A stretch of 64,000 nucleotides of DNA, taken from positions 64,001 through 128,000 of IMG/VR virus record IMGVR_UViG_3300027896_000014, one strand, 5' to 3'. A program made the translations under genes and the position numbers. The DNA is from a virus. Under the pieces are notes generated by a model that saw only the letters and a program-made list of their open reading frames with translations, made no database searches and had not been told where the DNA came from. This document shows positions 3,481 to 59,379 of this stretch, piece by piece. Every line of letters starts with the position of its first letter. Positions within the stretch are counted from its first letter, which is position 1.

Positions 3481-4164
3481 TTATTTTGTCTCTACTTTAT
3501 TCCAGCCTTGTTCTTTATACTCCGACTCAGAAACCTTCTGATCGGCTGGCTTGATAAGATAGAATTTAATGATAACTTTTGGGTCTGCGGTATTCACAAC
3601 AGCCGCCGCCAAGCCGGTTCCGTTAGCCCCATAAGCCATTGGATTAGCACCACCACCGAAACCTGCTGTAGCCCCACCACCACCAAGGTTAGCACCGATA
3701 GTTTTAGAAGACATCTTAAACAAGACATCAACTCTTATATTTGAAGTGTCAGTCTGTTTAAAAATCTTCACTGCTTCGGGGATAAGATTGATCACGTCTG
3801 AATCATAGTCCTCAAGTCTTGAAAACCCCATAATCCTTCCACCTCTCGTGTAGTAAATAGTTTTTACAACCTTGTCGGCTTCCTGAATAACCACACCTGT
3901 ATTGGGATTAATCTTTTTCATTTTCAACCGTTGAATACCGACAAATTCAGGAACTGAATCTTCAGGCATTCTCCCAACTACTCCAGGGATCAATTGTAAG
4001 AGATATGGGTACATTGGCTGTGGCTGAAGATAGGAATTTTGACTTCCGCCCATCCCTATGCCATAGGCATTTACGGTGGAAGTAACGGTATTCTCTTCAG
4101 CAAAAGCTATTACTGGAAGAATCAAATTCACAATCATGGCTATAAACAACACCTTATTTTTCAT
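3481..4164 (-). CDS. secreted hypothetical protein
   Basis: Signal peptide ending AFA; Gly-rich C-terminal segment; RBS AGGAGG. Confidence 0.75.
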   Translation of the reverse strand: MKNKVLFIAMIVNLILPVIAFAEENTVTSTVNAYGIGMGGSQNSYLQPQPMYPYLLQLIPGVVGRMPEDSVPEFVGIQRLKMKKINPNTGVVIQEADKVVKTIYYTRGGRIMGFSRLEDYDSDVINLIPEAVKIFKQTDTSNIRVDVLFKMSSKTIGANLGGGGATAGFGGGANPMAYGANGTGLAAAVVNTADPKVIIKFYLIKPADQKVSESEYKEQGWNKVETK

Positions 4165-4264
4165 TGCCTTTTAACCTCCTTAATTAATTTTTAAGGTTAA
4201 AGGGGAGAAGATTTCTCTCCTCCCCATCACCTTTTTTAGAACCCACTCCATTGGCTTCTATCCC

Positions 4265-38981: not shown

Positions 38982-39941
38982 TTACGAGCTGGAAATATAG
39001 CAACCTTTTACCTTACCAGCTGTCGCTGTAAGGGGCCAAACGAGTCCGAGGCCAATGACTCCGTACCAGGCCGCTGAATTTAATCGCCCATGATCCTGTC
39101 CGAAGTTGACCTGCACTCTGACCTCCGGCGTTTCCGCCTCGATCATGGCTGCGAAGTCGTCTCCGAAGATGATCCCCTCACCAAGAACCGATCCTGTCCC
39201 CTTGTTGTTGGCGAGACAGATCGTATCCTTGATCTCGATACACCGGATGCTCTCAATCTTTCCAACCTCGGAGTTGTGGAAGACATCCCCTTCACGGAGA
39301 TATTGCTTCCAGGTTTCAAAGTTATCGTCATTCTTGACCCCCCTCATCGCCTTTGTGGCGAGCAACCCAATATAGTCATCACCCTCATAGGGATCGACGA
39401 TATAGGTGTCAGAAAAGGCATCCCTAATTGCTCCCAGGTGAGCGATGTTTACGTTCACAAGAGCCGGTGTGTCGGGTGCTGCAACTGCCGAGAAGGCTCC
39501 ACCAGTCAGAGATGTCGGTTGATAGACGAGGTAGGTGGTCTTCATAACGGTTGCCGCAAGTCGGTCCAGAGCCTTTGTCATCTGCTTTCTGAGGGCCTTC
39601 TGAATCGGGTCCTGCGGGTCGAATTTTCCAAGTAACTGGCTCATGTGGCTAAACGTCACCGCACGGCCATACTCTGCCACGGTAATCGCCGTGGTGGACA
39701 AAGCAAAGTCATCCACGGGGATCCGATCGTGCTCCGAAAGAGCAGCACTTGTGGGCTGGGTCAAAAGATCAGCCCGGGTAAGGGTTTGTGACTCGCCGCG
39801 TTTCTTCCCGAAGCCAGGTTCGGTCCTGACGAAATCCATGAACTTGGACTCGACAATAGACTGTTCCCGAAGCTTCGCGCTCAAAGCATTATTCTTGTAG
39901 ACGCCTGTGGGAGCACTGAACTCCCAGGTGAAGTCTGCCAT
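38982..39941 (-). CDS. major capsid protein (HK97 fold, N4 gp56-like)
   Basis: GKKRGES, ITVAEYGRAV, SEVGKIESIRCIE, QDHGR...AWYG; follows the scaffold. Confidence 0.9.
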   Translation of the reverse strand: MADFTWEFSAPTGVYKNNALSAKLREQSIVESKFMDFVRTEPGFGKKRGESQTLTRADLLTQPTSAALSEHDRIPVDDFALSTTAITVAEYGRAVTFSHMSQLLGKFDPQDPIQKALRKQMTKALDRLAATVMKTTYLVYQPTSLTGGAFSAVAAPDTPALVNVNIAHLGAIRDAFSDTYIVDPYEGDDYIGLLATKAMRGVKNDDNFETWKQYLREGDVFHNSEVGKIESIRCIEIKDTICLANNKGTGSVLGEGIIFGDDFAAMIEAETPEVRVQVNFGQDHGRLNSAAWYGVIGLGLVWPLTATAGKVKGCYISSS

Positions 39942-45372: not shown

Positions 45373-46791
45373 CTAAAACCTAAAGTCGTCTCCCTTCATG
45401 GCATTCACTTCTTTGATAATTTGAAGCACGTCCGTCTCGAACTTTGCAGGAAAGGAGCTATTGGCCATTTCGATCTGGGAAGCAATCTTACTGGCCGCAT
45501 CTACTGCGGCTTTCGGAGTTTTCCCGTATCCCATCGCCGTCGCTACGACGTGATCACCCGGATCGAACCAATGGTCTCCTGCCTTTTGTACGATACGCCT
45601 GAATCCCATGTCTTTTCTTATTTCTTTCGGGAAATGAATCACTTCCCACGTCTTAATGTCATCGGTATAAACTCCGACCTGGGTGACATAGCCGGGCTCC
45701 ACTTCCGCTCGGACGTTCTGACCGGCCGCAATCTTATAGGTATATTCTGGAAAGTTCTTTATGTATCTTGACTGAATCGCACCGCAGGGCCAGGCATCAC
45801 GAGACGTTGGATCGTGGACTCTAACTTTCTTTCCGTCCCAAAAGAACTCAAAGCTGATATTGCCGTGATAACCGGATTTGATGAGAGAAGGCTTTATTTT
45901 GTTTAGGATATGCTCATCGATCCCATTCTCCTCCACCCAAACTCCGATTGTTCCCTCTCCTTTCACTTCTATCGTGTAGAGGAAAGGCCGGATATAATCC
46001 CTTCCATTGAAACCGACATCGACACCCAATTCTTTGCCTGGGCATGATCGCTGAATCAAAATCTCAAGGTCCTCACGGAATGGCCCAAAACCGGCCTGTT
46101 CGAGCGCCACGGCCATCTGTACTCGATTTTTCACGCCCTTCCCTGTCTCTTTATTGCCTCTATACTCTCCAACTTTTGGGAAGAAGAGAGTCTTGCCATC
46201 GGTGTGTTTATCCATGTACTCAAAAGCCTCATCAAAACCATGGACAACATCTCCATCGGGGACGCCGACGCCCATCTCTTGAAGCCGCTGCCATCCCTTC
46301 ACACGGTTATTTTCATTCTCGGTCCACCAGAAGGAAGGACCATAAACGATTTTCCCCTCATCACGCCAGATATCGGCATCCTTCCCGAAACAACAATCCG
46401 AGATATAAATAAAATCCTTTTGGGCAGCTTCCATCATGCTGTGGATCTTGTGAAGCCCCTTAAAGCCATATCCCGAGATTTGGTTCTCGATCGACGGGTA
46501 GGCTGCGGCACCGGCAATAAAGTAATACACTTCAAACTCCCTCATGAGTGCCAGGGCGTGATCAATCCCTAAATTGGTGTCGATGAAGCCAACGGTCCGT
46601 GGCATTCCATGTTCCCGCTTAGGCATAGAAATAGCCTTGGTCGCTTTTGCCGTCTGATAATTGGCGATTTCTGCATAGGAATATCCCTCTTTGTGTGCCT
46701 CTTCGACCTTAAAACCCGTAAATCCAGCGAGATAAAAGGCTATCTCCCGGTATGAATGACCCTCTTTTCTTTGGGCCTCGACATCGTACAT
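45373..46791 (-). CDS. PurD-like ATP-grasp ligase with an ejection-protein-like N-terminal tag
   Basis: VYGPS...ENNR...GVGVP, FFPK, LIQR..PGKELGV, GYHGNISFE...VHDPTSR. Confidence 0.75.
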   Translation of the reverse strand: MYDVEAQRKEGHSYREIAFYLAGFTGFKVEEAHKEGYSYAEIANYQTAKATKAISMPKREHGMPRTVGFIDTNLGIDHALALMREFEVYYFIAGAAAYPSIENQISGYGFKGLHKIHSMMEAAQKDFIYISDCCFGKDADIWRDEGKIVYGPSFWWTENENNRVKGWQRLQEMGVGVPDGDVVHGFDEAFEYMDKHTDGKTLFFPKVGEYRGNKETGKGVKNRVQMAVALEQAGFGPFREDLEILIQRSCPGKELGVDVGFNGRDYIRPFLYTIEVKGEGTIGVWVEENGIDEHILNKIKPSLIKSGYHGNISFEFFWDGKKVRVHDPTSRDAWPCGAIQSRYIKNFPEYTYKIAAGQNVRAEVEPGYVTQVGVYTDDIKTWEVIHFPKEIRKDMGFRRIVQKAGDHWFDPGDHVVATAMGYGKTPKAAVDAASKIASQIEMANSSFPAKFETDVLQIIKEVNAMKGDDFRF

Positions 46792-48599
46792 TATTGTCCC
46801 TCAAATGCGGAAAGGGGTCTACGCGTAGGTTCCCCTTCACCGGGGGCCAAAGCCCCGGGAACCAAACCAGCTCCACCGGCAGTCGGCGGAGGCGCCTGAT
46901 CAAGTGCCTCTGCCTGGTCATCCGTCATAATGAAGTCCGGGTCATGAAACCCGAACGCATTAACTTCGTGTTTTAGAAGCTTATACGGCTTAAAATACTT
47001 ACCGAATGTGGAGCTTTCTGCCTGCTTAAGAAAGGCTTGATACATTTGAATAAGCTGACTATTCTTGATTGCGGCAGATATCCCCATGATCTTAATATCG
47101 CAATTGGCCTTCAACATCTCCTTGCGTTGTTCAATGGACATCTGAGCGAACTTTTGAGCATTCGGATTGTTTTTCATAACACGGGAAATACTGGGATCTG
47201 AGTATTCATTCCAGTTCAGGACCACTACCTCTAAAGCAGCTCTAATCGTATTGACCGCACCTTCTTCTATATCCTCACCTATTGAATCGAAGACTGTCAT
47301 GGACTGACCGAGCAATATCTCAGCCTCTCCCTTTGTTTTTTGGCTTTTAGTTCCACGTTGGCCAGCTGCTAATTGAGTAAGCATTGAGGAAGCTTCCCGG
47401 CGTTGGTCCCAGTGTTGAAGCGTGGCCAGCGTTTCGTTGCTTGAGGGACTCGTGTAAACCTCCTTAACCACCGGTTGGCCAGGTGGCGCATCTTGCCTAC
47501 GAAAGACCGTCTTACCAGGAAACATGGCAACATCCGTAGGGTCCTCGAGATCCATCCGGTTTAGTTCTCGAAGTTTATTGACCCGCCACGAGAGATCGTC
47601 GATATGGAGGCTCATTAAGTTGCAGCTATTAAGCCACAGAAGAAGAGAGGTCTCAATAACTCCGTGTCCCTCAAACGTAAATAAATCTGGAAGGGGGGAA
47701 AAAGATATGCCTGGCCATCGCATCGTCACGAAAGGATTTGGTTCAGGATTTCGGATCAAAACATCTCCTGCCACGGTAAACCTGGCATTATCGAGGAGAA
47801 GTTCTCCCGATTTATCCAAAATAACGCCCCAATGCTCGATCAACCTCACGGCTTTTCTAAAACTGCTTCGTTGATAATATTGACCTTTCCTGCGGGCCCG
47901 TTTTTCCGCAGTTTCCTGGCCCCAGCTCGATTCATTGGCCGTGACCTCATTCAACCTCACATACCGTCCACCGAGTTTTTTGACCTTCCATAAATCAAGC
48001 CACTCCACATGATCCCAGTAATCTCCCGACCATGGCTCCCGTGGCGATGCATCCGAATCCCGATAGATCTGCCATGGAGGAACGAGAGAAAAAACCAACC
48101 CCTTTCCTGGAACCCACCTCGGAATCATCTCATGGGATTGACCGATCGCAAAACCGAGTTCTGTTCCATCAGAAAACGCAGTATCTAGGTGGGCGTGTTG
48201 AGGATTGAACCAAAACTCAGAAGCATCTCTAAGGAAAGAGGCAATCCATTTTTCATTCTCATCATCTGGATTCACCGCCTCGATTTTATACCAATCTGGC
48301 TGGCGAAGTGCTTTTCGGATAATCGCCACTCCCTGTTTAACCGTGGAGGTCATATCCCCAGTTGTCATTTTGGCCTGCCAATCTTCTTTCTCCGAATAAT
48401 CAATATCTGCCTTGTAAGCCCTATAGCACTGATCCCAGAGATATCTAACTTCTAAGTTGGCTTGCTCTGACTCCGTAATGCAGCTATGAGCGAAGTCAAC
48501 AAATGTGTCAGGATCTTCGACACCATAAGCCGATGCTGCCTCTTCACGTTCCGCCAGCTCTTGATCATCCCACCCCTGGGTCCCTGCATCATTCGCCAT
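46791..48599 (-). CDS. portal protein
   Basis: 602 aa; R..WDQCYRAY, VPPWQIYRD, G.GVIE, G...KTKGE motifs; position. Confidence 0.85.
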   Translation of the reverse strand: MANDAGTQGWDDQELAEREEAASAYGVEDPDTFVDFAHSCITESEQANLEVRYLWDQCYRAYKADIDYSEKEDWQAKMTTGDMTSTVKQGVAIIRKALRQPDWYKIEAVNPDDENEKWIASFLRDASEFWFNPQHAHLDTAFSDGTELGFAIGQSHEMIPRWVPGKGLVFSLVPPWQIYRDSDASPREPWSGDYWDHVEWLDLWKVKKLGGRYVRLNEVTANESSWGQETAEKRARRKGQYYQRSSFRKAVRLIEHWGVILDKSGELLLDNARFTVAGDVLIRNPEPNPFVTMRWPGISFSPLPDLFTFEGHGVIETSLLLWLNSCNLMSLHIDDLSWRVNKLRELNRMDLEDPTDVAMFPGKTVFRRQDAPPGQPVVKEVYTSPSSNETLATLQHWDQRREASSMLTQLAAGQRGTKSQKTKGEAEILLGQSMTVFDSIGEDIEEGAVNTIRAALEVVVLNWNEYSDPSISRVMKNNPNAQKFAQMSIEQRKEMLKANCDIKIMGISAAIKNSQLIQMYQAFLKQAESSTFGKYFKPYKLLKHEVNAFGFHDPDFIMTDDQAEALDQAPPPTAGGAGLVPGALAPGEGEPTRRPLSAFEGQ

Positions 48600-48634
48600 A
48601 AATCGTCCCTACGCATTTGCGTATGTTCAGAAAT

Positions 48635-48679
48635 AAAAAAACCCCTTGCTCAAGGACTTTCGATCCTCAAACAAGGGGT
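48635..48679 (-). terminator. long-stem rho-independent terminator upstream of the portal
   Basis: ACCCCTTGTTTGAGGAT-CGAAA-GTCCTTGAGCAAGGGGT followed by a T-tract. Confidence 0.8.
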
Positions 48680-48710
48680 CTCAAATATCTCATTGAAATG
48701 AGGTTGGAGA

Positions 48711-48953
48711 CTATCCTTTCAGATTAATTCTCTTCCTCAGTCCCTTTTCGTTTTTCTCGTAATCACTGATCCCTCCCTGATTTAGGTGAATGGTTACTGA
48801 TCCCGTAAAACTACTTCCGATGATTCCGAGCATTGAGAGAGAATTTACGATGTTCTGTTCGTATTCATCTCTCCCATTTTGAATTCTGTGATTTGTATAC
48901 TCTAAACCAATTGGTTTGTCAAGCCTTTTTTTAATTGGGGTGGATTTTACCAT
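48711..48953 (-). CDS. small protein, DUF2292-like
   Basis: FTGSVTIHLNQGGI motif; true start uncertain. Confidence 0.45.
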   Translation of the reverse strand: MVKSTPIKKRLDKPIGLEYTNHRIQNGRDEYEQNIVNSLSMLGIIGSSFTGSVTIHLNQGGISDYEKNEKGLRKRINLKG

Positions 48954-48960
48954 CGGGGTT

Positions 48961-49164
48961 CTATCCTATTTCAATGGATCTAATTGATTCTATCCTTCCA
49001 ACTTCGCCATTAAAAGGTGACATGCTTCTTAAATATTTAGCATCGGCAGTCTGTTCATATCTTCGCTTTGACTGCTCATAATAATATTTCACTTTAGCAT
49101 AGCTTTGTCCTTTCGTAGCTCTCCAAATCTTTCTCGATACCACCCATAGCTTGATCCAGCTCAT
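48961..49164 (-). CDS. hypothetical protein
   Basis: MSWIKLW... with RBS GGGGG. Confidence 0.45.
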   Translation of the reverse strand: MSWIKLWVVSRKIWRATKGQSYAKVKYYYEQSKRRYEQTADAKYLRSMSPFNGEVGRIESIRSIEIG

Positions 49165-49413
49165 GTTACCCCCTTTCAAACAGCATCCCTTCATCACCGG
49201 CATCCGGTTCATGGTTTGAAAGCTGAAAGTCTTTTCGTAACGTTTAATCCGATCTGCGAGTGACATCTTTGTGCCTAAACCTCCTGCCCTTGTAGGCCTT
49301 GCGGTCCCGTAACCGTCTCTCACGCATTAACTTCGTGAATGTTTTGGCCTCGGAGAGGCAACGACCCACATACTTTTCAGTCTCTCTTTGATTAGACATT
49401 TTGCCTCACTCTT

Positions 49414-49620
49414 TTACAACTTTACAATATTCATTGCGATAAAGGTCAACCCCGTGAACCGAAAAGTCAAGGTATTCGGATCAACCTGGAAGTTCGGAAC
49501 GTAGGCACACGAATATTTCTTAACCATAGCTTCAAATTCTTCCTTACAGGCTTGAGACCGCTGCATATCCGAGAGCGCCCCTTCCACTCCCCGGCCTTCG
49601 ACATTGATAATACCTTCCAT
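49414..49620 (-). CDS. hypothetical protein
   Basis: MEGIINV... with RBS AGGAGG. Confidence 0.55.
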   Translation of the reverse strand: MEGIINVEGRGVEGALSDMQRSQACKEEFEAMVKKYSCAYVPNFQVDPNTLTFRFTGLTFIAMNIVKL

Positions 49621-49636
49621 GTTCTTACCCTCCTTT

Positions 49637-49942
49637 TTAATTAATTTTAGATGCTTTTTCATTCTCGCATGTTTTCGCCTCTGCGCATTCCTTCCCATTT
49701 TCCTTTGCCTCTCCAAAAATGTAAGCCCCACCGGTGGGACAGTCAGGATCAATTCTAACCACCATTCCATGTACTTCGAGCACCATTTTGTGGTTCCTTC
49801 CTTCGGCTCGGTTGACCTCGTTCAATAGGGTCTCATTAGCCAGAGGAGACAGATATACCCATTTGGGCGTAAGGCCCAAATCTTCCAGCTTTCGTTTCGC
49901 TGTTAGGATCGTGTCACGAATTGAAGTTGTCACCTTATGCAC
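49637..49942 (-). CDS. possible HK97 A-domain-only protein
   Basis: L...GLTPKWVYLSP...VHGMVVRIDPDCPTGGAYIFGE. Confidence 0.4.
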   Translation of the reverse strand: MHKVTTSIRDTILTAKRKLEDLGLTPKWVYLSPLANETLLNEVNRAEGRNHKMVLEVHGMVVRIDPDCPTGGAYIFGEAKENGKECAEAKTCENEKASKIN

Positions 49943-50172
49943 CGATCACACCTTTTCATGCGTCCTCCATTTTTAGTCGGCCGTTAATGGAATAATTACT
50001 TTCATATGACTCGGCCATCCAAAAATAAGCCTCTTCCTAGAATTGTACTCCCAAATACAGTCAGAATCTTCTATACGCTCCCATCCTTCAATCCTACGGG
50101 CATCTGCGTAAACCTCATCGAGGGAGCGCTTTCTCCTGCATAGACGACCAAAGGAAATTCCGAGTCCGAAAC

Positions 50173-50955
50173 TCATTCTTTCCTCTCCGGGATGTGAAGG
50201 ACGTTCTGGCCACCAAATGCCAGTACGCCAAACCAGGCGATCATCGGCATCAATAATCGGAGCTTCGGAGTTTGGACCTCCCTGAATATCAAGCCCTGAT
50301 CACCGAAAACCACGCCATCACCTGAGAAACAACTTGGATCGGTACACTTGATCCAACGAATATTATTATTGGTCTGTCCAACCTCTCCTTGGTACAAAAC
50401 ATCCCCTTCTTTTAGATATTTGCTCCAATTGAAAATCTTGGCAAACTGCTTGATCCTGCGTATCAGTCTTGAGCCACCGATACCGATGTAACTCATCCCA
50501 TCGTAGGGTTCTGTTACGGAGTCCATATATCCGGAGACGATAGCCAGAGTCGCTTCCATCTCGGACCATTTAGCTCGAGGAATCAATCTCTTTATTAAAA
50601 CTCTGGATCTGGTAATGTCCACGGAACCTAATCTCAAGGCATGGGCGCAACAACGGTCAAGAACAGTTCTTAGTTGTCGGATCAAGCGCTTTTGTATTGG
50701 ATTTGCTGAATCAAATACTATAAACGGTGTGAAATTGGCCGGCAGGTTAAGGCCACGCCCTACCTCAGCTACTTTAATAGGAATCTTTCTTATCCTTCTC
50801 GTCGTCTTGTCAAATCGCTTTACCACTTCCTTTTTAGGATCGACGGCGGCCGCAAACTGGACTATTTCGGCCTGCCTAATAGCCGCATACCTTAACGCTG
50901 AAGATGCAGGATTACACTCAAAATAGCCTTCTCCATATTCCCATCTCCAAGTCAT
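50173..50955 (-). CDS. major capsid protein paralogue (260 aa)
   Basis: Colinear motifs with the MCP: IKVAEVGRG, EPYDGMSYIG, WSKYLKEGDVLYQGEVG, IRWI, GVVFGD, TPKLR, AWFGV. Confidence 0.85.
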   Translation of the reverse strand: MTWRWEYGEGYFECNPASSALRYAAIRQAEIVQFAAAVDPKKEVVKRFDKTTRRIRKIPIKVAEVGRGLNLPANFTPFIVFDSANPIQKRLIRQLRTVLDRCCAHALRLGSVDITRSRVLIKRLIPRAKWSEMEATLAIVSGYMDSVTEPYDGMSYIGIGGSRLIRRIKQFAKIFNWSKYLKEGDVLYQGEVGQTNNNIRWIKCTDPSCFSGDGVVFGDQGLIFREVQTPKLRLLMPMIAWFGVLAFGGQNVLHIPERKE

Positions 50956-50982
50956 TTCTTCACCCTCCTCGCACTCCCATCC

Positions 50983-51372
50983 TCAGCTATGCGATCCCTG
51001 CGCCCGATATCCAAAGATAAAATTTGGCTTCTCATCAGCACGATCACAAAAGGTCTTCCAAAAAGTTATTCTCCAAATCTTTTCGCCCGGAACACCACTT
51101 TTATTAACTTGCCAAAGCAATGACACATCACGAACCGGAAGACCATAATCATGCAAAGCTGCCAGTGCCCCAAATCCATTCGCATCGTCAGCCGTTGCGA
51201 TAAGGTCTATCGTCGGCCTATCATAGCTGTGTCCCTTACCTCCCTGACAAGATTGACATGTCTCAAAACACTTTGCATGGAGAACCCGCACGGCAAATCT
51301 AATCCCTTGATCAAGCTCCTGATACCAAGCCTCTGACGCCATATGGTCTCTAATCGGAACCTTATTTTCCAT
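50983..51372 (-). CDS. conserved phage protein
   Basis: LDQGIRFAVRVL...ETCQSCQGG.GH motif. Confidence 0.65.
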   Translation of the reverse strand: MENKVPIRDHMASEAWYQELDQGIRFAVRVLHAKCFETCQSCQGGKGHSYDRPTIDLIATADDANGFGALAALHDYGLPVRDVSLLWQVNKSGVPGEKIWRITFWKTFCDRADEKPNFIFGYRAQGSHS

Positions 51373-51509
51373 CTTTCACTCTTCTTAAGCTCCCATCCTC
51401 AGCCACATAGTATTCCTGACCGTTCATATCAGTCCAGGTTTCTCCCGGCTTTAAGAACTTACATTTATCCCTGAAGTCCAAGGTGCAACCCTTCTCATGT
51501 GGGTCGTGG

Positions 51510-51770
51510 CTATGGGGATGGAATGGCTTTTTGTCCCGTGGTAGCATGGTTATCCTTCCCTTCGTCCTCTTGTTTAACGATCCTCAGTATTTTTTCTTCG
51601 GCAATTCGCATAAATAGGTGAAATTTGGATTCGAAGTCATCTGCCGGCACTCTCATTTCAAAGTTGTGTTCTATCTTCCCACCAACCTTGGCTTTAACAG
51701 AGCAACGTATGTGCCCTGCAGGAAATTCTTCCGGTCTGACTCTCACGATAATATCATCAAGAATTCTCAT
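51510..51770 (-). CDS. hypothetical protein
   Basis: Tightly coupled ORF with RBS. Confidence 0.55.
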   Translation of the reverse strand: MRILDDIIVRVRPEEFPAGHIRCSVKAKVGGKIEHNFEMRVPADDFESKFHLFMRIAEEKILRIVKQEDEGKDNHATTGQKAIPSP

Positions 51771-51779
51771 TTCATCTCC

Positions 51780-52097
51780 TTATAGTAAGACGTTCGCCAA
51801 ATAGACCAGAATGCTAAGATGGATCGCCTGATCAAAGCCAATGAGAACAAAGAACCAATGCATCTCTCCTTTTTGCCAGAGGTATGCAGTTCCCCTGGAA
51901 GTAATTCCGTCCACGATGAGATGCGTGGCTCCAATGATGATTGCAAAGAGGACCCCACACCACACAAAGCACGAGGTGTAGACCAACGCATGAAAGCTCA
52001 ACCACTTAAGGCTCTTGCTTTTGTTCATAGCCATTGTGTGGCTTTGGAACAGTAGATCTCCCACGAAATGTACCCAAATGAATAGAAGAATAATCAT
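51780..52097 (-). CDS. DUF3307-like membrane protein
   Basis: HFVGDLLFQ..MA..K..L..H..VY..THLIVD..IGFDQAIH. Confidence 0.8.
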   Translation of the reverse strand: MIILLFIWVHFVGDLLFQSHTMAMNKSKSLKWLSFHALVYTSCFVWCGVLFAIIIGATHLIVDGITSRGTAYLWQKGEMHWFFVLIGFDQAIHLSILVYLANVLL

Positions 52098-52742
52098 GTT
52101 ATTGCCTCCTGGCATTCACGATCTCTTCAAGCGTCCCGATCGGTGGACCGAGCCTTTCTGATACAACCTTGGAAATGTGCTCTACGAACCTAGCATACCA
52201 CTTATCCCCAAACTTCTCCTTGAATCGTTTAATCATTTTACGCCTTTGCGTATTACTGTATGACAAACTACTCCTCCAAATATTTTAATGCTCTATCAAT
52301 TTTATTTCTTTGATTTTCAACATATCCAACAATCCTATTGCATTGTGCATGTAAAAGCCCCCTGACTCTTCCAGTTATATGGTCATGATCTATGTGAGTC
52401 GAACGGTCTGTCGTAAGTTCTTTATCGCAGATAGGACATAAATTCTTTCAGAAATCCATCGATGCCCTTGCCAAAGCGATAAGAGATTTGAGAAGTATCT
52501 TAGAGGTTATTTCAACCAACCTCCAGCACGTCTCTGGGGCTATCGATCGCTCTTCTGGTTCAAAGAAAGAGTAAGGCGCAAAAAAACCGCATCTATCAGA
52601 TCTAATGTCCCATGAAGGATCTCATATGCATCTTTGGCGTTCATCCCATCGAAAAGGGGGGCCAGCTTGTTCTTGATGAAAGCAATTCTTTGTTTGTCTG
52701 TCATAATTTTTCTCCTTTCAGAAGATTGAGAAGGTGTAAAAC

Positions 52743-52901
52743 ATAGAAACTACAATCTGGATCTGCACGGCAATTATTTGCACTGTCATTGGCTTTTTAG
52801 CTTACGCAGTAGTCGGTGATATCACTAAAGCCCTGCGTCGTATCGAAATAGTGTTGGACGAAATCCTCAAAAATATGATGGATAAGAGATCTCGCATATG
52901 A
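52743..52901 (+). pseudogene. paralogue of the 7600..7869 membrane protein with ATA at the start position
   Basis: 23 bp identical to 7603-7625; (I)ETTIWICT; in-frame stop just upstream. Confidence 0.6.
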
Positions 52902-52917
52902 AGATCCTACACACTTT

Positions 52918-53655
52918 CTATCTCCTTTTTTTAAGTCTGGCTATAAATTGATTTAAAAATTTTCGATCAATTTCAAGAGTTCTTGATTTAATGTTTGAGA
53001 GATAAATGTCCGCCGCATTCCACATCTGAATTCTGGAAGAGGCTCCACGGCGAATCCATGAAGCATACATATCGGCGGCTTGTAACGGAGGAAATTGTTT
53101 GTCATCCCAATGATCACATTTTCCAAGTCTTGGGAGGTCTGGTAGTTGCGATTTTATATAGTCATCAAAGATAATCCTAAACCGTCTTCCAACTTTTCCC
53201 TGTTCATCGAAAATAAAATCTATCGGATTGGCTCTCTTACCTATTCCTGGAAATAAAAACACACATTGAAAACACACCCAAGCAACAACCAAAGCTGCAC
53301 ATATAAAATAAGGATCATTGGACGGGAAGAGAGAATTAAAAGAGTAAAATTCCTTGATTATCTTAAGATCACTTTTTGAGAGATATGCCGCAATACCATA
53401 GCAGTTTTCAGTTGGAATAACGCTTGCCAGCTTAGCAATTTTTTGATTTCTAACATCCCGGTCAAAATTTGAAAAGCATCGTTTTAGTCCAATCGCATCA
53501 TTGGTTCTATAGTATCCAATAACTGGAGGCTCCTTACATACATTAACCCAATCAGAAGAAAACTTGTCCCATACTATAATCGGTGCTATGAAACCACCCA
53601 AGACGAAGGTGCTTTCGTCTCCGCTATCATCTATGACAGCTTTGAGGGTTATCAT
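52918..53655 (-). CDS. DUF3800-like RNase H-fold protein
   Basis: AVIDDSG..FVLGG, FIFDEQG, PLQAADMYA; own ATG 53655 with RBS, also in frame with the EndoVII N-half. Confidence 0.8.
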   Translation of the reverse strand: MITLKAVIDDSGDESTFVLGGFIAPIIVWDKFSSDWVNVCKEPPVIGYYRTNDAIGLKRCFSNFDRDVRNQKIAKLASVIPTENCYGIAAYLSKSDLKIIKEFYSFNSLFPSNDPYFICAALVVAWVCFQCVFLFPGIGKRANPIDFIFDEQGKVGRRFRIIFDDYIKSQLPDLPRLGKCDHWDDKQFPPLQAADMYASWIRRGASSRIQMWNAADIYLSNIKSRTLEIDRKFLNQFIARLKKRR

Positions 53656-53988
53656 TAATCTCCCATTTTTATATTCGGGAGCCAGTCCGCAATAATACCG
53701 TTGTATGCAGATCGCAGCAAGCTCTAACTGATCGAGTATACTCCTTTTCTTGCTGCTTTGTAAAGTTAATAATTCCGAATTCTTTTGTGAAAGTCTAAGC
53801 TCTCCCAAACTTTCGAAGGTCAGCCCATATCTTTTTTTGAGTATATGTCTTCTCCGTAAAAGACGCCATCGGTCTGGATTCTTTTCTCTCCACTTTTTCT
53901 CCGCTAAGTACGCTTGAGCTTTATGGTTTTGTTTATACTTACGAGATGCTCTGCGAGCTGATTCCTTGCTCATTCCAAAAGTCGCCTC

Positions 53989-54192
53989 TCAATCATGCCC
54001 AAAAATAGCTCGATAATTCTCCCGATACGCCTCGGAGGCGGTCTTCCCTGTGCAGGCTGGACACTTACAGAGAGAGTTGGGAGGGCCTTCACTATGGCTG
54101 CCGTCGTATTGTGCTCCACAGCCAGTACAGGCAAAAGCCTCAGATTCTTTGGTCCGTCTCTTACTTCGGTAAACCGCTTTCCACTTGGACAT
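53989..54192 (-). CDS. small Zn-ribbon protein
   Basis: CTGC...CPAC...YRENYRAIFG. Confidence 0.6.
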   Translation of the reverse strand: MSKWKAVYRSKRRTKESEAFACTGCGAQYDGSHSEGPPNSLCKCPACTGKTASEAYRENYRAIFGHD

Positions 54193-54202
54193 CTCGTACT
54201 CC

Positions 54203-54517
54203 TTAGACTATTAAGCCTGTTTTCCGATATACCCACTCTGAAAACTTATGCAACCAGTTATTAAGTGGACAATCCCGACCCCCAATTTCGTAAGCTATCC
54301 AATGAATGAGTTCATGTAGTACACCATACCAGCAACTTCTCTGAAGCCAAATCTCCTTTTTCGGATAATAGTAAAGACCGCGATAACGGCCCCTGATCTC
54401 CATAGGTGTACTATAATTAAGTTCTGGAAATTCCCAAACATGGTCTGGGAACTTGTCACAAAAGAATATTTTAGGGAAAAACCTTCTCCGATAAACTGCC
54501 TTCCACCCCTCGCTCAC
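54203..54517 (-). CDS. small HExxH metallopeptidase-like protein
   Basis: GLYYY..KEIWL...VLHELIHW. Confidence 0.6.
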   Translation of the reverse strand: MSEGWKAVYRRRFFPKIFFCDKFPDHVWEFPELNYSTPMEIRGRYRGLYYYPKKEIWLQRSCWYGVLHELIHWIAYEIGGRDCPLNNWLHKFSEWVYRKTGLIV

Positions 54518-54731
54518 TTGTTATCCCCTTTCACGTCCGATACCCATTCCCATACCTTCTTTGCCTCGTTCAGAATATCTTTCGTGGTCGGTCTCGGTCG
54601 TTTCTCCCTCATAATGTTAACAGCTACGTAGAAACAGTTAAGTCTCTGCTCTGCCCTTTCCTTTGCCGTCATCATTGGTTATCACCTCCTCCCCTCACCT
54701 CTGGCCTATAATTCCAACCCGCCCCATACCT

Positions 54732-55028
54732 CTAAACTTTGACACTTACGTTAACCGTATGAAGTGTTACCATGCCCGGTTCAGAGGGATTTGGCACTAC
54801 GAACTGTCCGCCGGCGACCATTTCGGCCTCTTTCAGGGTCATTTTCCGGTAGGCTCGCTCAAAGGTCTCCTTGGGGGACCAAGAGACATATCCGTCTTCG
54901 TACCGAACCCGATAACCGACTCGGTTTGGCTGAGTTTCATCCCAAGCTTGGCCTTTCGAGAATACGAAATCTCTCTCGTCCAGAGGCTCAGCTGCTATGA
55001 TCTTGGTGCCAATATAGATTTCTTCCAT
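54732..55028 (-). CDS. conserved phage protein (YIGTK...DGYxSWSPK family)
   Basis: YIGTKIIAAEP...GYRVRYEDGYVSWSPKETFERAYR. Confidence 0.8.
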   Translation of the reverse strand: MEEIYIGTKIIAAEPLDERDFVFSKGQAWDETQPNRVGYRVRYEDGYVSWSPKETFERAYRKMTLKEAEMVAGGQFVVPNPSEPGMVTLHTVNVSVKV

Positions 55029-55040
55029 CAGATCCTCCTT

Positions 55041-55301
55041 TCACAATTTTTTCACGGTTCGTTCACAGTCAAAGCAATAAGACCTCTTCTTTCCATTATC
55101 GTCATCAATTACCTGCACATTCCCATGCCTCCCAAGCCGGCAACCTGTCTGTCTATACCAATATTTACCAAACGAATCATGCCAGAGGTAGGAATTCTTC
55201 CAAAATCTTCGATGGAAGAGCCTCCAGCCACACCAATTACCCGCGGGGTAACGATGAAACAAACTCCACCAGATATCAGCATTTTCACGACAAGCACCCA
55301 T
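55041..55301 (-). CDS. hypothetical protein
   Basis: CRLGRH...YCFDC. Confidence 0.5.
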   Translation of the reverse strand: MGACRENADIWWSLFHRYPAGNWCGWRLFHRRFWKNSYLWHDSFGKYWYRQTGCRLGRHGNVQVIDDDNGKKRSYCFDCERTVKKL

Positions 55302-55512
55302 GGCCTATCCTCCTCTTGATCCATTCCTTCACCCGGATCAAAGCAACCCCAACTTTCCTTGTCCAGAATAGCCTAAAAAGCTGCCGATAGGTCGGAGTTG
55401 GTCTCTGCATCTGGTAAAGCCGAATCTCATTCTTAATCTTATTAAACTCCTGCTTTTTTAGTTTGACCCTGACCCGCCTTCCACTCGGGAGAACCAGCTC
55501 CATTGATAACAT
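55285..55512 (-). CDS. hypothetical protein
   Basis: RBS GGAGG; coupled ORF. Confidence 0.5.
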   Translation of the reverse strand: MLSMELVLPSGRRVRVKLKKQEFNKIKNEIRLYQMQRPTPTYRQLFRLFWTRKVGVALIRVKEWIKRRIGHGCLS

Positions 55513-55686
55513 CTTCCCTCCTCAATTATTTTTCAAACCTACAATTCTCGAATTTAATGACCTTTATATCCGAGCCAATCCAAAATCCACATTCGCTAAA
55601 ACAATGTGGACATCTCATAATCTGAGAAATCAATGTATCGAATTCCCAACTTTTATTGCAATAACGACAAATCATATGTTGCATTT

Positions 55687-55959
55687 TTACCATTTTGGAA
55701 GTTTCGCCCTCCTCTTCGCCTCCGGTACGACCCGATGCACCAGTAGGCACTCTATGTCAAGGATCGACCAACCAGAAAGCATCTTCAGGATGCGTACCTC
55801 CATCTTGTCGAGTTTGGTAGGTGCCAACCGTTTCTGTTCACTTGCCGTTGAAATGCTCCGCAAAGCCCCTGCTGTCAATTCGGCTGAGACAGATCCAAGA
55901 TGTTTCAATGTTCCAGCATTTAGCCTTTTCACTTCACGAGCATATTTAGTAAGCTTCAT
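55687..55959 (-). CDS. hypothetical protein
   Basis: MKLTKYARE...; ATGA overlap with the upstream ORF. Confidence 0.55.
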   Translation of the reverse strand: MKLTKYAREVKRLNAGTLKHLGSVSAELTAGALRSISTASEQKRLAPTKLDKMEVRILKMLSGWSILDIECLLVHRVVPEAKRRAKLPKW

Positions 55960-56150
55960 TTTCTTCTCCCCTGGTAATCCAGATTCACCACATACGACTT
56001 TGCCAAATTCTGGGGTTCTACTCGGTCCACCGAGGATGGTACTTGCCCACACTTCGAACACTTGTAGGGGAATGGATTCTTCTTATCCACCACCAGAGCC
56101 TCGAGCTGACCGCCACAATAATTACAGAAGGCTTGAACCTCATCGTCCAC
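55956..56150 (-). CDS. Zn-ribbon protein carrying a copy of the TerL C-terminal tail
   Basis: GTG start with RBS AGGAG; CNYC..CSKC; PQNLAKSYVVN...QGRR. Confidence 0.65.
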   Translation of the reverse strand: MDDEVQAFCNYCGGQLEALVVDKKNPFPYKCSKCGQVPSSVDRVEPQNLAKSYVVNLDYQGRRK

Positions 56151-56392
56151 TCTCAAACTCCTATTTCTCTCCCACAACGCTTGCAGACTAAATAATAATT
56201 TTCTGTATCCAACATAGCTTAGATCACAGAGCTACACTTACACTTCTTAAGCTCCTTCTCTTTAAAAGCATGGCAGTCTTCGATGGGGAGCGCTATAAAA
56301 GTTTTTCCAATCTCTGGATTCCATTCACGAATATGTCCTTGAGCACAATTCACTCTGTTTTTGTCAAACTTGCATGTCGTGCAATCTCTCAT

Positions 56393-56608
56393 TTAACCCC
56401 CCGCTATCTTTCGCCACCTCTTGACCATTTCTAAAACTTTCAAAACTTCATCATTCCATTCCTTTCTAATGGCTTCTTCACGCCCCCACATTTTAAAGAG
56501 CCAGGTAAAGCTAAGATAGTCTTCCTGGTCCTGAATTGGTATTAATCTCCCAAATAATTGATTGAACCATCGATACGGTGTTCTCCATTTTTTAACGAGA
56601 ATAACCAT
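56393..56608 (-). CDS. hypothetical protein
   Basis: Directly after terL. Confidence 0.5.
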   Translation of the reverse strand: MVILVKKWRTPYRWFNQLFGRLIPIQDQEDYLSFTWLFKMWGREEAIRKEWNDEVLKVLEMVKRWRKIAGG

Positions 56609-56609
56609 C

Positions 56610-58220
56610 TCATCGTCTCCCTTGGCTTTTATGCAATCCGATATTGACAGCGTAGGATTGAGCTAATTTTTGGGGCGGCGGCATATCCGCGGGCTTTGTA
56701 CGCCTTTGCGTAACCATTGAACAATAAACGACCGCCTCACCTTTGTCGGGGGATCTTCCCAGCCTCCTCTTGAGTCCGGCAATCTTCACCCCATCAGCCC
56801 CGATCTTATCCTCTTTTGACTCGATCAGAATCCCCCCAGGAGTCAACATCCAGAGTGGAGCACATAGATCAGCTTTCAGTTCAGGGTCTGAAGGTAGAGC
56901 CACTTTGTCACCCATCAAAGGGTCCAAACTCTCCCGAAATCTCCACCACATATAGGACCGCATATTACGGAAACGATACTTCTGGGTGGCCTTGTCGGTC
57001 TTTCCCTCGAGTCCCTTTGTCCCGCCAGAATCTATTGCAATTACTTGTACTTTAACGTTTGTCTTTAGAAAGTCTACCACGGCTCCGCCTACTCCAATTC
57101 CATCAACATGGATCGGTGCCCCATCACGCATAGCTTCAATAACCTTACCGGCCGCTGATTGGCCATCGGGCGTCTGTACTCCGGGATAGCAGATTAAAGG
57201 AGAGTACCAAGTGCCATATCTCGTGGAGATCACGGTTCGGTCAGTCCCACCTCGAGCCACATCAACCCCTATAGAATCCATGGCCCCCTTCTTCCCATCC
57301 TCTTTCCAGCGAGCCTGGGCTGCCTCAACCCATAATGTGGGGATGACCTGCCACTCTGAGTCTTTAATACCGGCCTGAAAGTTCCCCTCACGCATTTGGG
57401 AACGGAGGGGCTCAGGAGATGCATTGAGCACCACTTCATAGTTCGTGCCCAGCAAGAAAGGATTATCTTCTAACTTTGAGGGGATAAAGGTTCGAGACAT
57501 CGGCTTAACCATGACGCCTTTGACCCGGATCGGATTCCCACTTGGAAGCTCTACGTCCTTCCCATCGATGGTGGTATACCAACGGAGCTCGCCAGGTTTG
57601 GCAGGGTGTGGATGCTTTGAATCGATCCAGGGACCCCAAAACTGGATAACCCACCTTCCTTGTTCGTCCACAGGAGGGTTACCCGTACAAACGATTCGGC
57701 AGCGTTGGCCCTGGACGGTTGTTCTAAGCCAAAGGGAAAGGAAGCGGAACTGATGCTCAATGAAGTTACAAATTTCGTCAAAGCCGAGGAAGTCATGAGG
57801 GCGCCCTTGCCATCGTGTCTCATCACCAGGGTCCTTACAGCTACCAAATTCTATCTGCCGGTCCGGAAGTCTCCAGATCAGTTGCTGAGAATTCCAACCA
57901 TCCCGGGTGGCCAAGATCTCTGCCAATCGATCAACCAGTGCCACCGTCTGCGTTGCCTCACGCCTAAAGATAATCGACCGCCTATGTTCGGTGAGGCTAA
58001 GGCCAAGAAGAAGATCGCTCTTGGACCCGCCGGCAGCTCCCCCAAAGAATAGGATATCTGCGGGGTTCTCCAGAGCATCCATCTGCGTCCCAGGAATCGG
58101 CGTCCACAATGGATGCTTCAGGCTTACCAAAACCTCCCGTTGCAGATCCTGGAGTTCGTCGGAATTCAACCGCTCTAAAATATGCGAGAGTTCAATTATT
58201 TGTTTGGCTGAGGATTGCAA
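56610..58220 (-). CDS. terL: terminase large subunit
   Basis: FGGAAGGSKS Walker A, GFDE Walker B, TGNPP, GVDVARGG.D, RSPDKGEA. Confidence 0.95.
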   Translation of the reverse strand: MQSSAKQIIELSHILERLNSDELQDLQREVLVSLKHPLWTPIPGTQMDALENPADILFFGGAAGGSKSDLLLGLSLTEHRRSIIFRREATQTVALVDRLAEILATRDGWNSQQLIWRLPDRQIEFGSCKDPGDETRWQGRPHDFLGFDEICNFIEHQFRFLSLWLRTTVQGQRCRIVCTGNPPVDEQGRWVIQFWGPWIDSKHPHPAKPGELRWYTTIDGKDVELPSGNPIRVKGVMVKPMSRTFIPSKLEDNPFLLGTNYEVVLNASPEPLRSQMREGNFQAGIKDSEWQVIPTLWVEAAQARWKEDGKKGAMDSIGVDVARGGTDRTVISTRYGTWYSPLICYPGVQTPDGQSAAGKVIEAMRDGAPIHVDGIGVGGAVVDFLKTNVKVQVIAIDSGGTKGLEGKTDKATQKYRFRNMRSYMWWRFRESLDPLMGDKVALPSDPELKADLCAPLWMLTPGGILIESKEDKIGADGVKIAGLKRRLGRSPDKGEAVVYCSMVTQRRTKPADMPPPQKLAQSYAVNIGLHKSQGRR

Positions 58221-58418: not shown

Positions 58419-58631
58419 TTAGGCCACTTCCACATTCCAAGCCCAACCTTCAATTTCGCCAAAATCAAATTTTGCTCGGTGATAAGTGAGTGAATCATCT
58501 TTACCGCTCAACTCTTTATCCCATCCGAGGAATGTCCCTGTCATTTCTCCACTCACGCAACAGTCTTCAAATTTGATTAAATATCTTATCCCTATTTGCA
58601 AATCTTTAAGTTCCATGATGGTTCTACCCAT
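58419..58631 (-). CDS. hypothetical protein
   Basis: Between terS and terL; FEDCC motif. Confidence 0.5.
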   Translation of the reverse strand: MGRTIMELKDLQIGIRYLIKFEDCCVSGEMTGTFLGWDKELSGKDDSLTYHRAKFDFGEIEGWAWNVEVA

Positions 58632-59250
58632 CTTCCCCCTTTTCCCCCTCAATTTCCTTCTTCCTCTCAACCGCCAGTTTTACCAAATACACTATTTTTG
58701 CAGAAAGTTCAAGCGTTGTTAGTACCCTGCCGATCCCCTCCTCCTCCTCATCCTCGTCCCGGTGCTTCCCGTTGCCGATGATCCCGAGGTGTTTACTGAG
58801 AAGTTCGAGGGCTCTAACCTTATCATAGGTACGGACCTTCTTGGTGTGCCCAATGAGAGTCCGTTTCTTCCCCTTGCCAGTATATTCCTCAAGAACCTCC
58901 ACACCTGCAACTGCGGCAGCTGCTTCATCTGACCACTCATGAGGAAGCTTCAAGCTTCCATCTTCATTGTAAAGATTCCGAAGGTCTGAGAGAGCAACTC
59001 TGGCAACTTCAGTTAAAACTCTTTCAGAATGGACGCCAATTTTCTGAAGATGGTGCTCAGTAAGTCTTTCAACCGCAGCCTTCACTTGAGGAACCTTGAG
59101 AAGCTGTGACGCCATTTCCCATGCGCTTTGGTCGTCCTTGACACGATAGCCAGCTCCCTTTACGGCTTCACCGGCAACCCATCTAACTTTTGGAAGTAAA
59201 GCCACAAAAGTCTTCTGTTTTATCGTGAGTTTACGAACTTTGGTTTTCAT
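58624..59250 (-). CDS. terS: terminase small subunit
   Basis: LTIKQKTFV..A..AGY..ASQLL..PQV..ERVLTEVARVA..DKVRALELL.KHLG. Confidence 0.9.
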   Translation of the reverse strand: MKTKVRKLTIKQKTFVALLPKVRWVAGEAVKGAGYRVKDDQSAWEMASQLLKVPQVKAAVERLTEHHLQKIGVHSERVLTEVARVALSDLRNLYNEDGSLKLPHEWSDEAAAAVAGVEVLEEYTGKGKKRTLIGHTKKVRTYDKVRALELLSKHLGIIGNGKHRDEDEEEEGIGRVLTTLELSAKIVYLVKLAVERKKEIEGEKGEDG

Positions 59251-59379
59251 ATAAGATATCCTTGTAATCACAATTGGGGAAACAGGGAGTTCTGGTCGGT
59301 GAGGTATCGTTGGTAGAACCGCCAGTTGCTTTGCTTCCCTTAAATAATATCAATATACTCCAAATTGTTTTACTTTAAG

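Follow-up and report, generated by a model that had tools for sequence, protein, structure and literature searches.

The window analysed here is the whole 64,000-nucleotide stretch formed by bases 64001-128000 of IMG/VR virus record IMGVR_UViG_3300027896_000014, a 145,243-bp record that originates from a freshwater metagenome and represents an uncultured phage. In this phage the large terminase gene (terL) and the portal gene are separated by an island of 8,010 bp, measured from terL stop to portal start, which holds about 22 small co-oriented open reading frames (ORFs). Two of its genes encode proteins resembling parts of the phage's own assembly machinery, namely Zn73, a small Zn-ribbon protein that ends in a copy of the TerL tail, and MCPshort, a shortened paralogue of the major capsid protein (MCP). 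An earlier note on this DNA had described terL and portal as normally adjacent genes split by about 8 kb of small ORFs, with a terminator between island and portal and with a shortened MCP paralogue and a Zn-ribbon protein carrying a TerL-tail copy among the island's products; all of these points were borne out. Every gene discussed lies on the minus strand, and the principal features, given with their lengths in amino acids (aa), are as follows.

58624-59271, minus strand: terS, the small terminase gene in the upstream flank (phrog_51, 3.5e-18)
56610-58220, minus strand: terL, large terminase, 536 aa (phrog_979, 6e-37), with a C-terminal tail at ~56613-56687 that carries the motif PPQKLAQSYAVNI
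55956-56177, minus strand: Zn73, a 73-aa four-Cys Zn-ribbon protein, with the TerL-tail end PQNLAKSYVVNL and basic residues at ~55959-56027
53989-54192, minus strand: Zn67, a 67-aa Zn-ribbon protein, the ancestral terL-portal gene across the whole portal family
50173-50955, minus strand: MCPshort, a 260-aa HK97-fold MCP paralogue without E-loop, P-domain loop and C-terminal extension
48638-48682, minus strand: terminator-like hairpin closing the island, a 20-bp stem followed by a T-run, 38 nucleotides (nt) before the portal start
46791-48599, minus strand: portal, 602 aa, with weak PHROG matches, PF23899 in homologues and a predicted clip at about residues 341-386 (47442-47579)
38982-39941, minus strand: resident MCP, 319 aa (phrog_1357, 3e-6; TIGR04387, N4-gp56 family, 3e-9)

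The size of the gap was assessed in 80 fetched loci of the same portal family, in 51 of which the upstream TerL could be located. The median terL-portal gap is 554 bp and 39 of the 51 loci have 1 kb or less, which agrees with the adjacency assumed in the earlier note; a gap above 5 kb occurs in just three, two of them being the window's nearest relatives. Island size differs within the sub-clade, from 8.0-9.6 kb in the window and the related loci L003, L005, L006 and L012 to 1.5 kb in L013, which has a portal 71% identical. Zn67 is the one gene retained between terL and portal throughout the family, also where the phage has another TerL type. Its C-terminal motif (SEAYRxNY) is conserved, and it probably encodes an undescribed packaging or portal accessory protein. 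The ancestral order is terL, a Zn-ribbon gene of about 67 aa homologous to Zn67, and portal, which makes the island an expansion of this slot specific to the lineage. Zn73 was considered as a duplicate of Zn67 and rejected, with an hhalign probability of 2.6%.

A comparison of synteny and variability in relatives, as suggested in the earlier note, revealed a hypervariable island in which a backbone is shared and cassettes are exchanged. The backbone common to relatives consists of Zn73, a 75-aa gene, Zn67 and genes of 61, 67 and 51 aa, around which the cassettes vary, and the locus thus has the variable content between conserved core flanks that characterizes a hot spot.

The last 23 residues of Zn73 are 52% identical to TerL residues 512-536, which are the last 25 of TerL (E 2e-4), and the two proteins have the tail motif NLAKSY[AV]VN in common. 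Both the four cysteines and the tail are retained in all 12 homologues of Zn73 found in the databases, and N57, L58, K60, Y62 and V64 are invariant in the 13 sequences. The ratio of nonsynonymous to synonymous substitution rates (dN/dS) is 0.14-0.39. Pfam gave weak matches to Zn-ribbon profiles only, and neither the ATPase nor the nuclease domain of a large terminase is present. The TerL and Zn73 tails are alike as protein sequences, with codons that differ at most synonymous positions, which speaks against a recent DNA duplication. The same synonymous differences led us to reject the idea that the likeness stems from an element at the DNA level, a recombination site for instance. Zn73 occurs in seven of the eight loci with this TerL type and is missing from L013, where TerL retains the tail although Zn73 is gone.

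The S-Y motif is conserved in the TerL tails of relatives and reaches beyond this TerL type. Thirty-five of 41 distinct TerL tails, representing three TerL types that accompany this portal family, have an S/T/N-Y-small motif within their last 30 residues, compared with an average of 5.4 in shuffled tails and a frequency of 4.2% in TerL-body windows. Tails close to that of Zn73 were found in other TerL types (NLAKSYVVG in L055, NLAKTYGVG in L038), and Zn73 itself has the S-Y tail seen in the TerLs accompanying this portal family. The record's second TerL is 59% identical as far as the end of the nuclease domain. The portal with which it is paired is unrelated (phrog_156, 1e-139), and its own tail differs and lacks the motif. 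The S-Y tail thus keeps to the portal family rather than to the TerL family.

The AlphaFold2 (AF2) model of the portal, with a predicted local distance difference test (pLDDT) score of 83, matched the portals of podophages including SU10, N4 and T7. TerL is known to dock at the portal clip or vertex via its C-terminal region, and the clip binds TerL and later adaptor tails (PMC10359639, PMC12407722). Since the tail tracks the portal family and docking at the portal has been published, the portal vertex is most likely the partner of the S-Y motif and hence of Zn73. Zn73 would then be a TerL docking peptide mounted on a small Zn-ribbon without a motor. At the portal vertex it would most likely take the place of the TerL tail and thereby modulate or block docking of the motor; it could gate docking, displace the terminase after packaging or block rival motors. 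The tails of TerL and adaptor proteins described so far are short flexible docking peptides (PMC10359639, PMC12407722), and the S-Y motif, by tracking the portal family, behaves alike; unlike in those systems, the tail here is also found on a free-standing 73-aa Zn-ribbon without ATPase or nuclease. To our knowledge, no free-standing Zn-ribbon protein with a TerL docking tail has been described.

MCPshort is colinear with the resident MCP over its full length at 25% identity (E 1e-25). A structure prediction, also proposed in the earlier note, gave a confident HK97 fold (AF2 pLDDT 90.6, with low confidence at residues ~41-60), and Foldseek matched the model to HK97-fold capsid proteins, encapsulins and T4 gp24, the top BFVD match being an MCP of the N4-gp56 family. 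MCPshort thus has both the HK97 fold and homology to MCP. An exhaustive search with MCPshort returned 40 relatives, about 19 of which are short forms of 239-284 aa and most of the others MCPs of ~312-328 aa; a wider search with a 9-sequence alignment yielded known contigs only. The ~19 short forms are cluster representatives and their ORFs are all intact. In a joint alignment, all 19 are shorter by about 30 residues in the stretch that links the N-arm with the spine helix, which is the E-loop region, and the P-domain loop and C-terminal segment are deleted as well. The complete set of lattice-forming elements (E-loop and P-domain loop) is therefore not found in MCPshort, while the N-arm and the capsomer-core motifs of MCP are retained. 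In a maximum-likelihood tree a single branch with support of 100/99 splits the short forms from full-length MCPs, which indicates that the MCPshort family is old and did not arise as a recent copy of the resident gene.

The genes for MCPshort and MCP are 10 kb apart, and MCPshort occupies the same position in the terL-portal region in relatives that have it. It is not universal, being absent from G001/L003 (94% complete, MCP 94% identical), L013 and L021. The 61- and 67-aa backbone genes that flank it in the window are adjacent in L003 and L021, and MCPshort is, as judged from gene content, dispensable. Between genomes in which MCP is 90-94% and TerL 76-84% identical, MCPshort is 45-49% identical, a divergence about five times that of MCP. 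The proportion of nonsynonymous differences (pN) is 0.21-0.37 against 0.61-0.93 for synonymous ones (pS), and dN/dS is 0.20 in the single unsaturated pair. Two outcomes that the earlier note had named as damaging to its proposal are thus unlikely. Neutral decaying duplicates are contradicted by pN well below pS in MCPshort and by the dN/dS of Zn73, and ordinary stoichiometric virion parts by genomes in which MCPshort is missing next to an MCP 94% identical and by the missing Zn73 of L013.

We tentatively read the expanded terL-Zn67-portal spacer as an accessory hot spot in which Zn73 and MCPshort are kept by selection through competitive mimicry, a reading to which we give somewhat less than even confidence. 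Each mimic would have kept one binding surface of an assembly protein, with the parts that build or run the machine missing. For MCPshort, retention of the HK97 core and N-arm and loss of the capsomer-tying E-loop and P-loop would produce a stand-in for free MCP that does not form a lattice, and its favoured effect would be to titrate host sensors of unassembled MCP. As modelled, the protein appears better suited to imitating free MCP than to shell building. MCP is sensed by Avs7 and Dsr1, which apparently recognize the monomer (bioRxiv 10.64898/2026.01.04.697583). Titration of sensors is our leading guess because MCP-sensing immunity is common and apparently recognizes monomers, and because a virion-protein mimic, DSAD1, has proven to work in anti-defence. 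DSAD1 of SPbeta-like phages traps DSR2 by posing as the tail tube protein (PMC10973363), and resembles the present case as an accessory protein that imitates a virion protein of its own phage and acts by occupying the binding site of its partner. The structural imitation is found here in both proteins, in MCPshort as the MCP fold and in Zn73 as the TerL tail. They differ in that DSAD1 imitates a tail tube protein and its target DSR2 and inhibition were shown experimentally, whereas the MCP or the TerL tail is imitated here and the partners are putative.

Both genes could instead encode ordinary assembly parts, MCPshort being a minor capsid subunit at the penton or near the portal, comparable to T4 gp24, and Zn73 a packaging cofactor that docks beside TerL. 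The retained N-arm and MCP core motifs, the presence of the T4 gp24 vertex protein among the Foldseek matches of MCPshort, the occurrence of Zn73 in nearly all loci of this TerL type and the purifying selection on both genes would fit. So would their position in the terS-terL transcription unit: co-transcription of the island with terS-terL is suggested because the genes are co-oriented and no terminator-like site was found between terS-terL and 48682. MCPshort is, on the other hand, absent from L003/G001, L013 and L021, and its divergence is about five times as fast as that of the MCP with which it would need to be compatible. An E-loop is normally retained in lattice subunits, also in those of pentons, and MCPshort has none. 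T4 gp24 is likewise an HK97-fold MCP paralogue within one phage genome; it is a conserved structural part encoded beside gp23, whereas MCPshort is patchy, lacks the E-loop and is encoded in an accessory island 10 kb from MCP, so that it is not the conserved paralogue beside the MCP gene that gp24 exemplifies. SU10, which has the same portal type, builds a prolate head with pentamers and hexamers from one MCP (PMC9509320), which argues against a required second capsid subunit. Zn73 is absent from L013 despite the tail-bearing TerL of that phage. We consider assembly parts an unlikely explanation.

The two proteins could also be weapons against competitors, with MCPshort poisoning or redirecting capsid assembly and Zn73 blocking the motors of co-infecting related phages or satellites. 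A precedent exists in Ccm of SaPIbov5, a capsid-protein homologue that occupies penton positions and alters head shape (PMC8569155), which shows that additional homologues of capsid proteins are able to work within the capsid. Like MCPshort, the Ccm proteins of cos-type pathogenicity islands of Staphylococcus aureus (SaPIs) represent extra, diverged HK97-fold MCP homologues encoded outside the head operon and unneeded for normal capsids. Patchy distribution and fast evolution would suit a weapon, a design without E-loop would cap a growing lattice, and the tail motif is common enough in the portal family that Zn73 could work across strains. Ccm differs, however, in being encoded by a satellite, keeping its E-loop and being built into capsids as pentamers, whereas MCPshort is encoded by a phage within its own terL-portal region, lacks E-loop and P-loop and has a design that does not suggest such incorporation. 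The mimics furthermore are no less similar to proteins of the phage itself than to those of others, so that the phage would need a way not to poison itself, and none is visible. A satellite or second related-phage context was not seen, and in the second phage-like module of the record the portal is unrelated and no MCP homologue was detected. Weapons of this kind seem to us a rather improbable function.

The reading as competitive mimicry in an accessory hot spot is helped by the anatomy of the locus and by the conservation, selection and dispensability of its genes and the link of the tail motif to the portal family, all of which were established directly. Several points weigh against it. Only predicted partners can be named for Zn73 and MCPshort; for both we infer the binding partners (the portal vertex and host MCP sensors) as well as the effect. 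A copy of MCP that preserves the fold could equally trigger fold-sensing Avs-type receptors, and the retained N-arm and core motifs would also fit co-assembly of MCPshort into capsids. The TerL tail may dock on capsid hexons, as has been proposed (PMC12407722), or could dock on TerS or TerL itself, instead of on the portal clip. Zn73 is near-universal in the sub-clade and lies directly after terL, which from its gene position may fit a routine packaging cofactor equally well. The two mimics are not co-inherited, which makes a single shared logic an assumption, and the window island contains no known anti-defence or defence family.

The remaining features of the island are listed below.

56219-56608, minus strand: variable slot from terL to Zn73, with ORFs of 71 aa (56393-56608) and 57 aa (Cys-rich, 56219-56392)
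55687-56061, minus strand: 124-aa ORF that runs into the end of Zn73, with full-length conservation in L003 only
55285-55512, minus strand: 75-aa backbone gene, present in L003, L004, L005, L006 and L012
54732-55028, minus strand: 98-aa protein (phrog_9467, 1.6e-16; PHROGs without known function)
54203-54517, minus strand: 104-aa protein found in the window alone, with an HExxH motif and a weak Tox-MPTase3 match (E 0.057)
52918-53973, minus strand: 351-aa chimera of an endonuclease VII (EndoVII) N-terminus and DUF3800 (PF12686, 1.7e-6)
51780-52115, minus strand: 111-aa DUF3307 membrane protein (PF11750, 6e-9; phrog_2470, 2e-14)
51362-51547, minus strand: 61-aa backbone gene, left neighbour of the MCPshort slot
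50983-51372, minus strand: 129-aa protein unique to the window, member of a widespread unnamed phage protein family
49973-50176, minus strand: 67-aa backbone gene, right neighbour of the MCPshort slot
48961-49323, minus strand: chimeric remnant ORF with a Thg1-like N-terminus, an unrelated middle and a 25-aa MCP-like end (48967-49038)

The slot between terL and Zn73 has different content in each relative, and its sole recurring ORF is the 57-aa one, which is found in L005; neither slot ORF matched a known family. The 124-aa ORF is read in another frame than the 3' end of Zn73, and in the remaining relatives just the overlapping part matches; it is a putative gene. No counterpart of the 104-aa HExxH protein was found in relatives. 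The 129-aa neighbour of MCPshort was considered as a capsid-like protein and rejected, as it has no similarity to MCP and belongs to another family of phage proteins. Scans of the island for tRNAs and Rfam families found nothing, and a megablast search of the island region against GenBank phages gave no match.

Mobile DNA is common in this region among relatives. The L003 island encodes endonuclease VII in intact form (PF02945, 1.6e-18) and also has a gene with a NUMOD3 motif, and that of L004 has two HNH-like genes. In three relatives terL is a single ORF of 1,254 aa (L006:3596-7360), 1,275 aa (L007:392-4219) or 890 aa (L013:5826-8498), sizes that indicate in-frame inserts. These inserts follow residues ~68 and ~378, that of L013 has a LAGLIDADG match, and they are probably inteins; terL of the window has no such insert.

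Chimeric ORFs were found in the same setting. The first 65 residues of the 351-aa chimera are 92% identical to the endonuclease VII that is intact in L003 (ORF 16314-16688, PF02945); a separate DUF3800 gene is present elsewhere in the L003 island. In the remnant ORF at 48961-49323, the first 25 codons are 92% identical to a Thg1-like gene that is intact in L012, and the C-terminal 25 residues are 64% identical to MCP residues 213-237 (E 4e-6). This ORF is probably what the earlier note took for a possible capsid A-domain-only protein, of which the 25 MCP-like residues stand; the remainder is unrelated to MCP and the ORF, which is not conserved in relatives, reads as a recombination scar. A longer decayed MCP pseudogene around the fragment was rejected, since tblastn in any frame and a DNA-repeat search were both empty. 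L012 has an exact 136-nt direct repeat (4114-4249 and 14522-14657), through which a segment of its own portal starts a 255-aa island ORF. According to the portal model, the segment comprises the end of the first stem helix and most of the clip, lying between the stem helices at residues 316-340 and 387-404. No relatives of this portal-clip chimera were found in IMG/VR; a second contig, from a different sample, breaks about where the L012 copy lies.

Situated as they are among homing endonucleases and chimeric ORFs, the short fragments of structural genes find their best explanation as scars left by recombination where homing endonucleases abound. Such endonucleases and illegitimate recombination would churn the island and leave chimeric ORFs and scraps of structural genes behind. 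Zn73 and MCPshort could in principle be functionless by-products of the same kind, left by illegitimate recombination and the repair that follows homing-endonuclease cleavage, as are seemingly the 25-aa MCP fragment at the end of a chimeric, non-conserved ORF, the exact copy of the portal clip in L012 and the EndoVII-DUF3800 chimera, all of them near homing endonucleases and the in-frame terL inserts. Such an origin fits short fragments, not two intact genes. The Zn73 tail keeps five invariant positions in 13 diverged sequences and is scrambled against terL at synonymous sites, MCPshort belongs to an old family with intact ORFs in ~19 cluster representatives and a confident fold, and a pN well below pS in Zn73 and MCPshort contradicts the by-product origin for the intact genes. 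We regard it as very unlikely for these two.

Known defence and anti-defence families were not found among the island proteins of the window with PADLOC, Pfam and NCBIfam. Recognized anti-defence genes are represented by leads only. The first is the 98-aa protein, whose Atlas neighbours carry Tad2-like, Acb2_Tad1_hairpin or Sequestin domains (PF11195, PF24729, PF21825). Its likeness is to the partner domain of these neighbours, with a template modelling (TM) score of 0.56-0.63 over ~70 residues; it has no Pfam match, and a sequence search of solved structures returned nothing significant. The earlier note's mention of a domain fused to nucleotide sponges thus stands as far as the fold likeness goes and remains a lead. 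The second is an Acb2_Tad1_hairpin gene located 16 bp upstream of the gene for a divergent MCPshort (P0030).

These leads bear on the earlier note's central proposal, that the whole island forms one coordinated decoy or counter-defence kit. A TerL tail, an MCP paralogue, an MCP fragment and a portal clip copy do cluster at one locus across relatives, the fold of the 98-aa protein is that of a domain found fused to sponge proteins, and the Acb2_Tad1_hairpin gene adjoins a distant MCPshort. The components are, however, gained and lost independently, as in L003, which has Zn73 and no MCPshort, and the island is for this reason not regarded as one system. Of the four "mimics", two have the look of scars. 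The window is without any known anti-defence family, and Zn67, which held the slot ancestrally, is conserved in the manner of a core gene. The idea of a single kit did not hold up and has little probability in our view.

At its downstream end the island is closed by the hairpin at 48682-48638. A like hairpin with a T-run is found ahead of portal in three of five close relatives (L005, L012 and L013) and not in L003 and L006. Directly before the portal start and right after the terminator lies a conserved leader of ~35 nt (window 48600-48637, with equivalents in L003, L005 and L012), which contains a small hairpin (ACGCAAATGCGT) and a purine-rich stretch. No sigma-70-like promoter was found between the terminator and the portal start. 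On the other side of portal, a 472-aa gene at 45373-46791 abuts the portal stop, and a 471-aa gene has the same position on another contig; the 472-aa gene had no match in PHROGs or NCBIfam.

Outside the window, the same record contains, at G000:C1:17709-19193 and L098:4770-7058, the second terL, of 515 aa, followed by ~2 kb of small ORFs and the phrog_156 portal. Relatives of the window phage have genomes of 88-94 kb, and the 145-kb record, with its two packaging modules, may be two phage genomes joined.

Accessory and anti-defence hot spots known from other phages likewise have conserved flanks, gain and lose cassettes of small fast-evolving genes and contain homing endonucleases. The present one differs from them in being sited inside the packaging unit, between terL and portal, in carrying mimics of assembly proteins and in having no recognized anti-defence gene in this copy. 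As a kind, mimics of virion proteins in phage accessory regions are already known, and the most original elements here are the free-standing mimic of the TerL tail and the linkage of its motif to a portal family.

Immune receptors of bacteria are now known for the majority of core proteins of virion and packaging, MCP, portal and terminase among them. The answers of phages to such fold-level sensing are largely open, one that experiments have shown being the mimic DSAD1. The locus adds two compact candidates that can be synthesized, an HK97 core without lattice loops and a 20-residue terminase docking tail on a Zn-ribbon. The S-Y motif at the TerL C-terminus also offers a testable handle on terminase docking to SU10/N4-type portals, with Zn73 as a natural competitor peptide. 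More speculatively, and with doubts that outweigh our confidence, this lineage may evolve, in its terL-portal hot spot, free-standing imitations of the contact surfaces of its own assembly proteins, with a tail mimic that would gate or sabotage the engagement of terminase with portal and a loop-less subunit that would replace unassembled MCP in encounters with host immune sensors or rival assemblies. If true, mimicry of virion and packaging proteins would be a general, evolvable phage strategy that extends beyond the single case of DSAD1.

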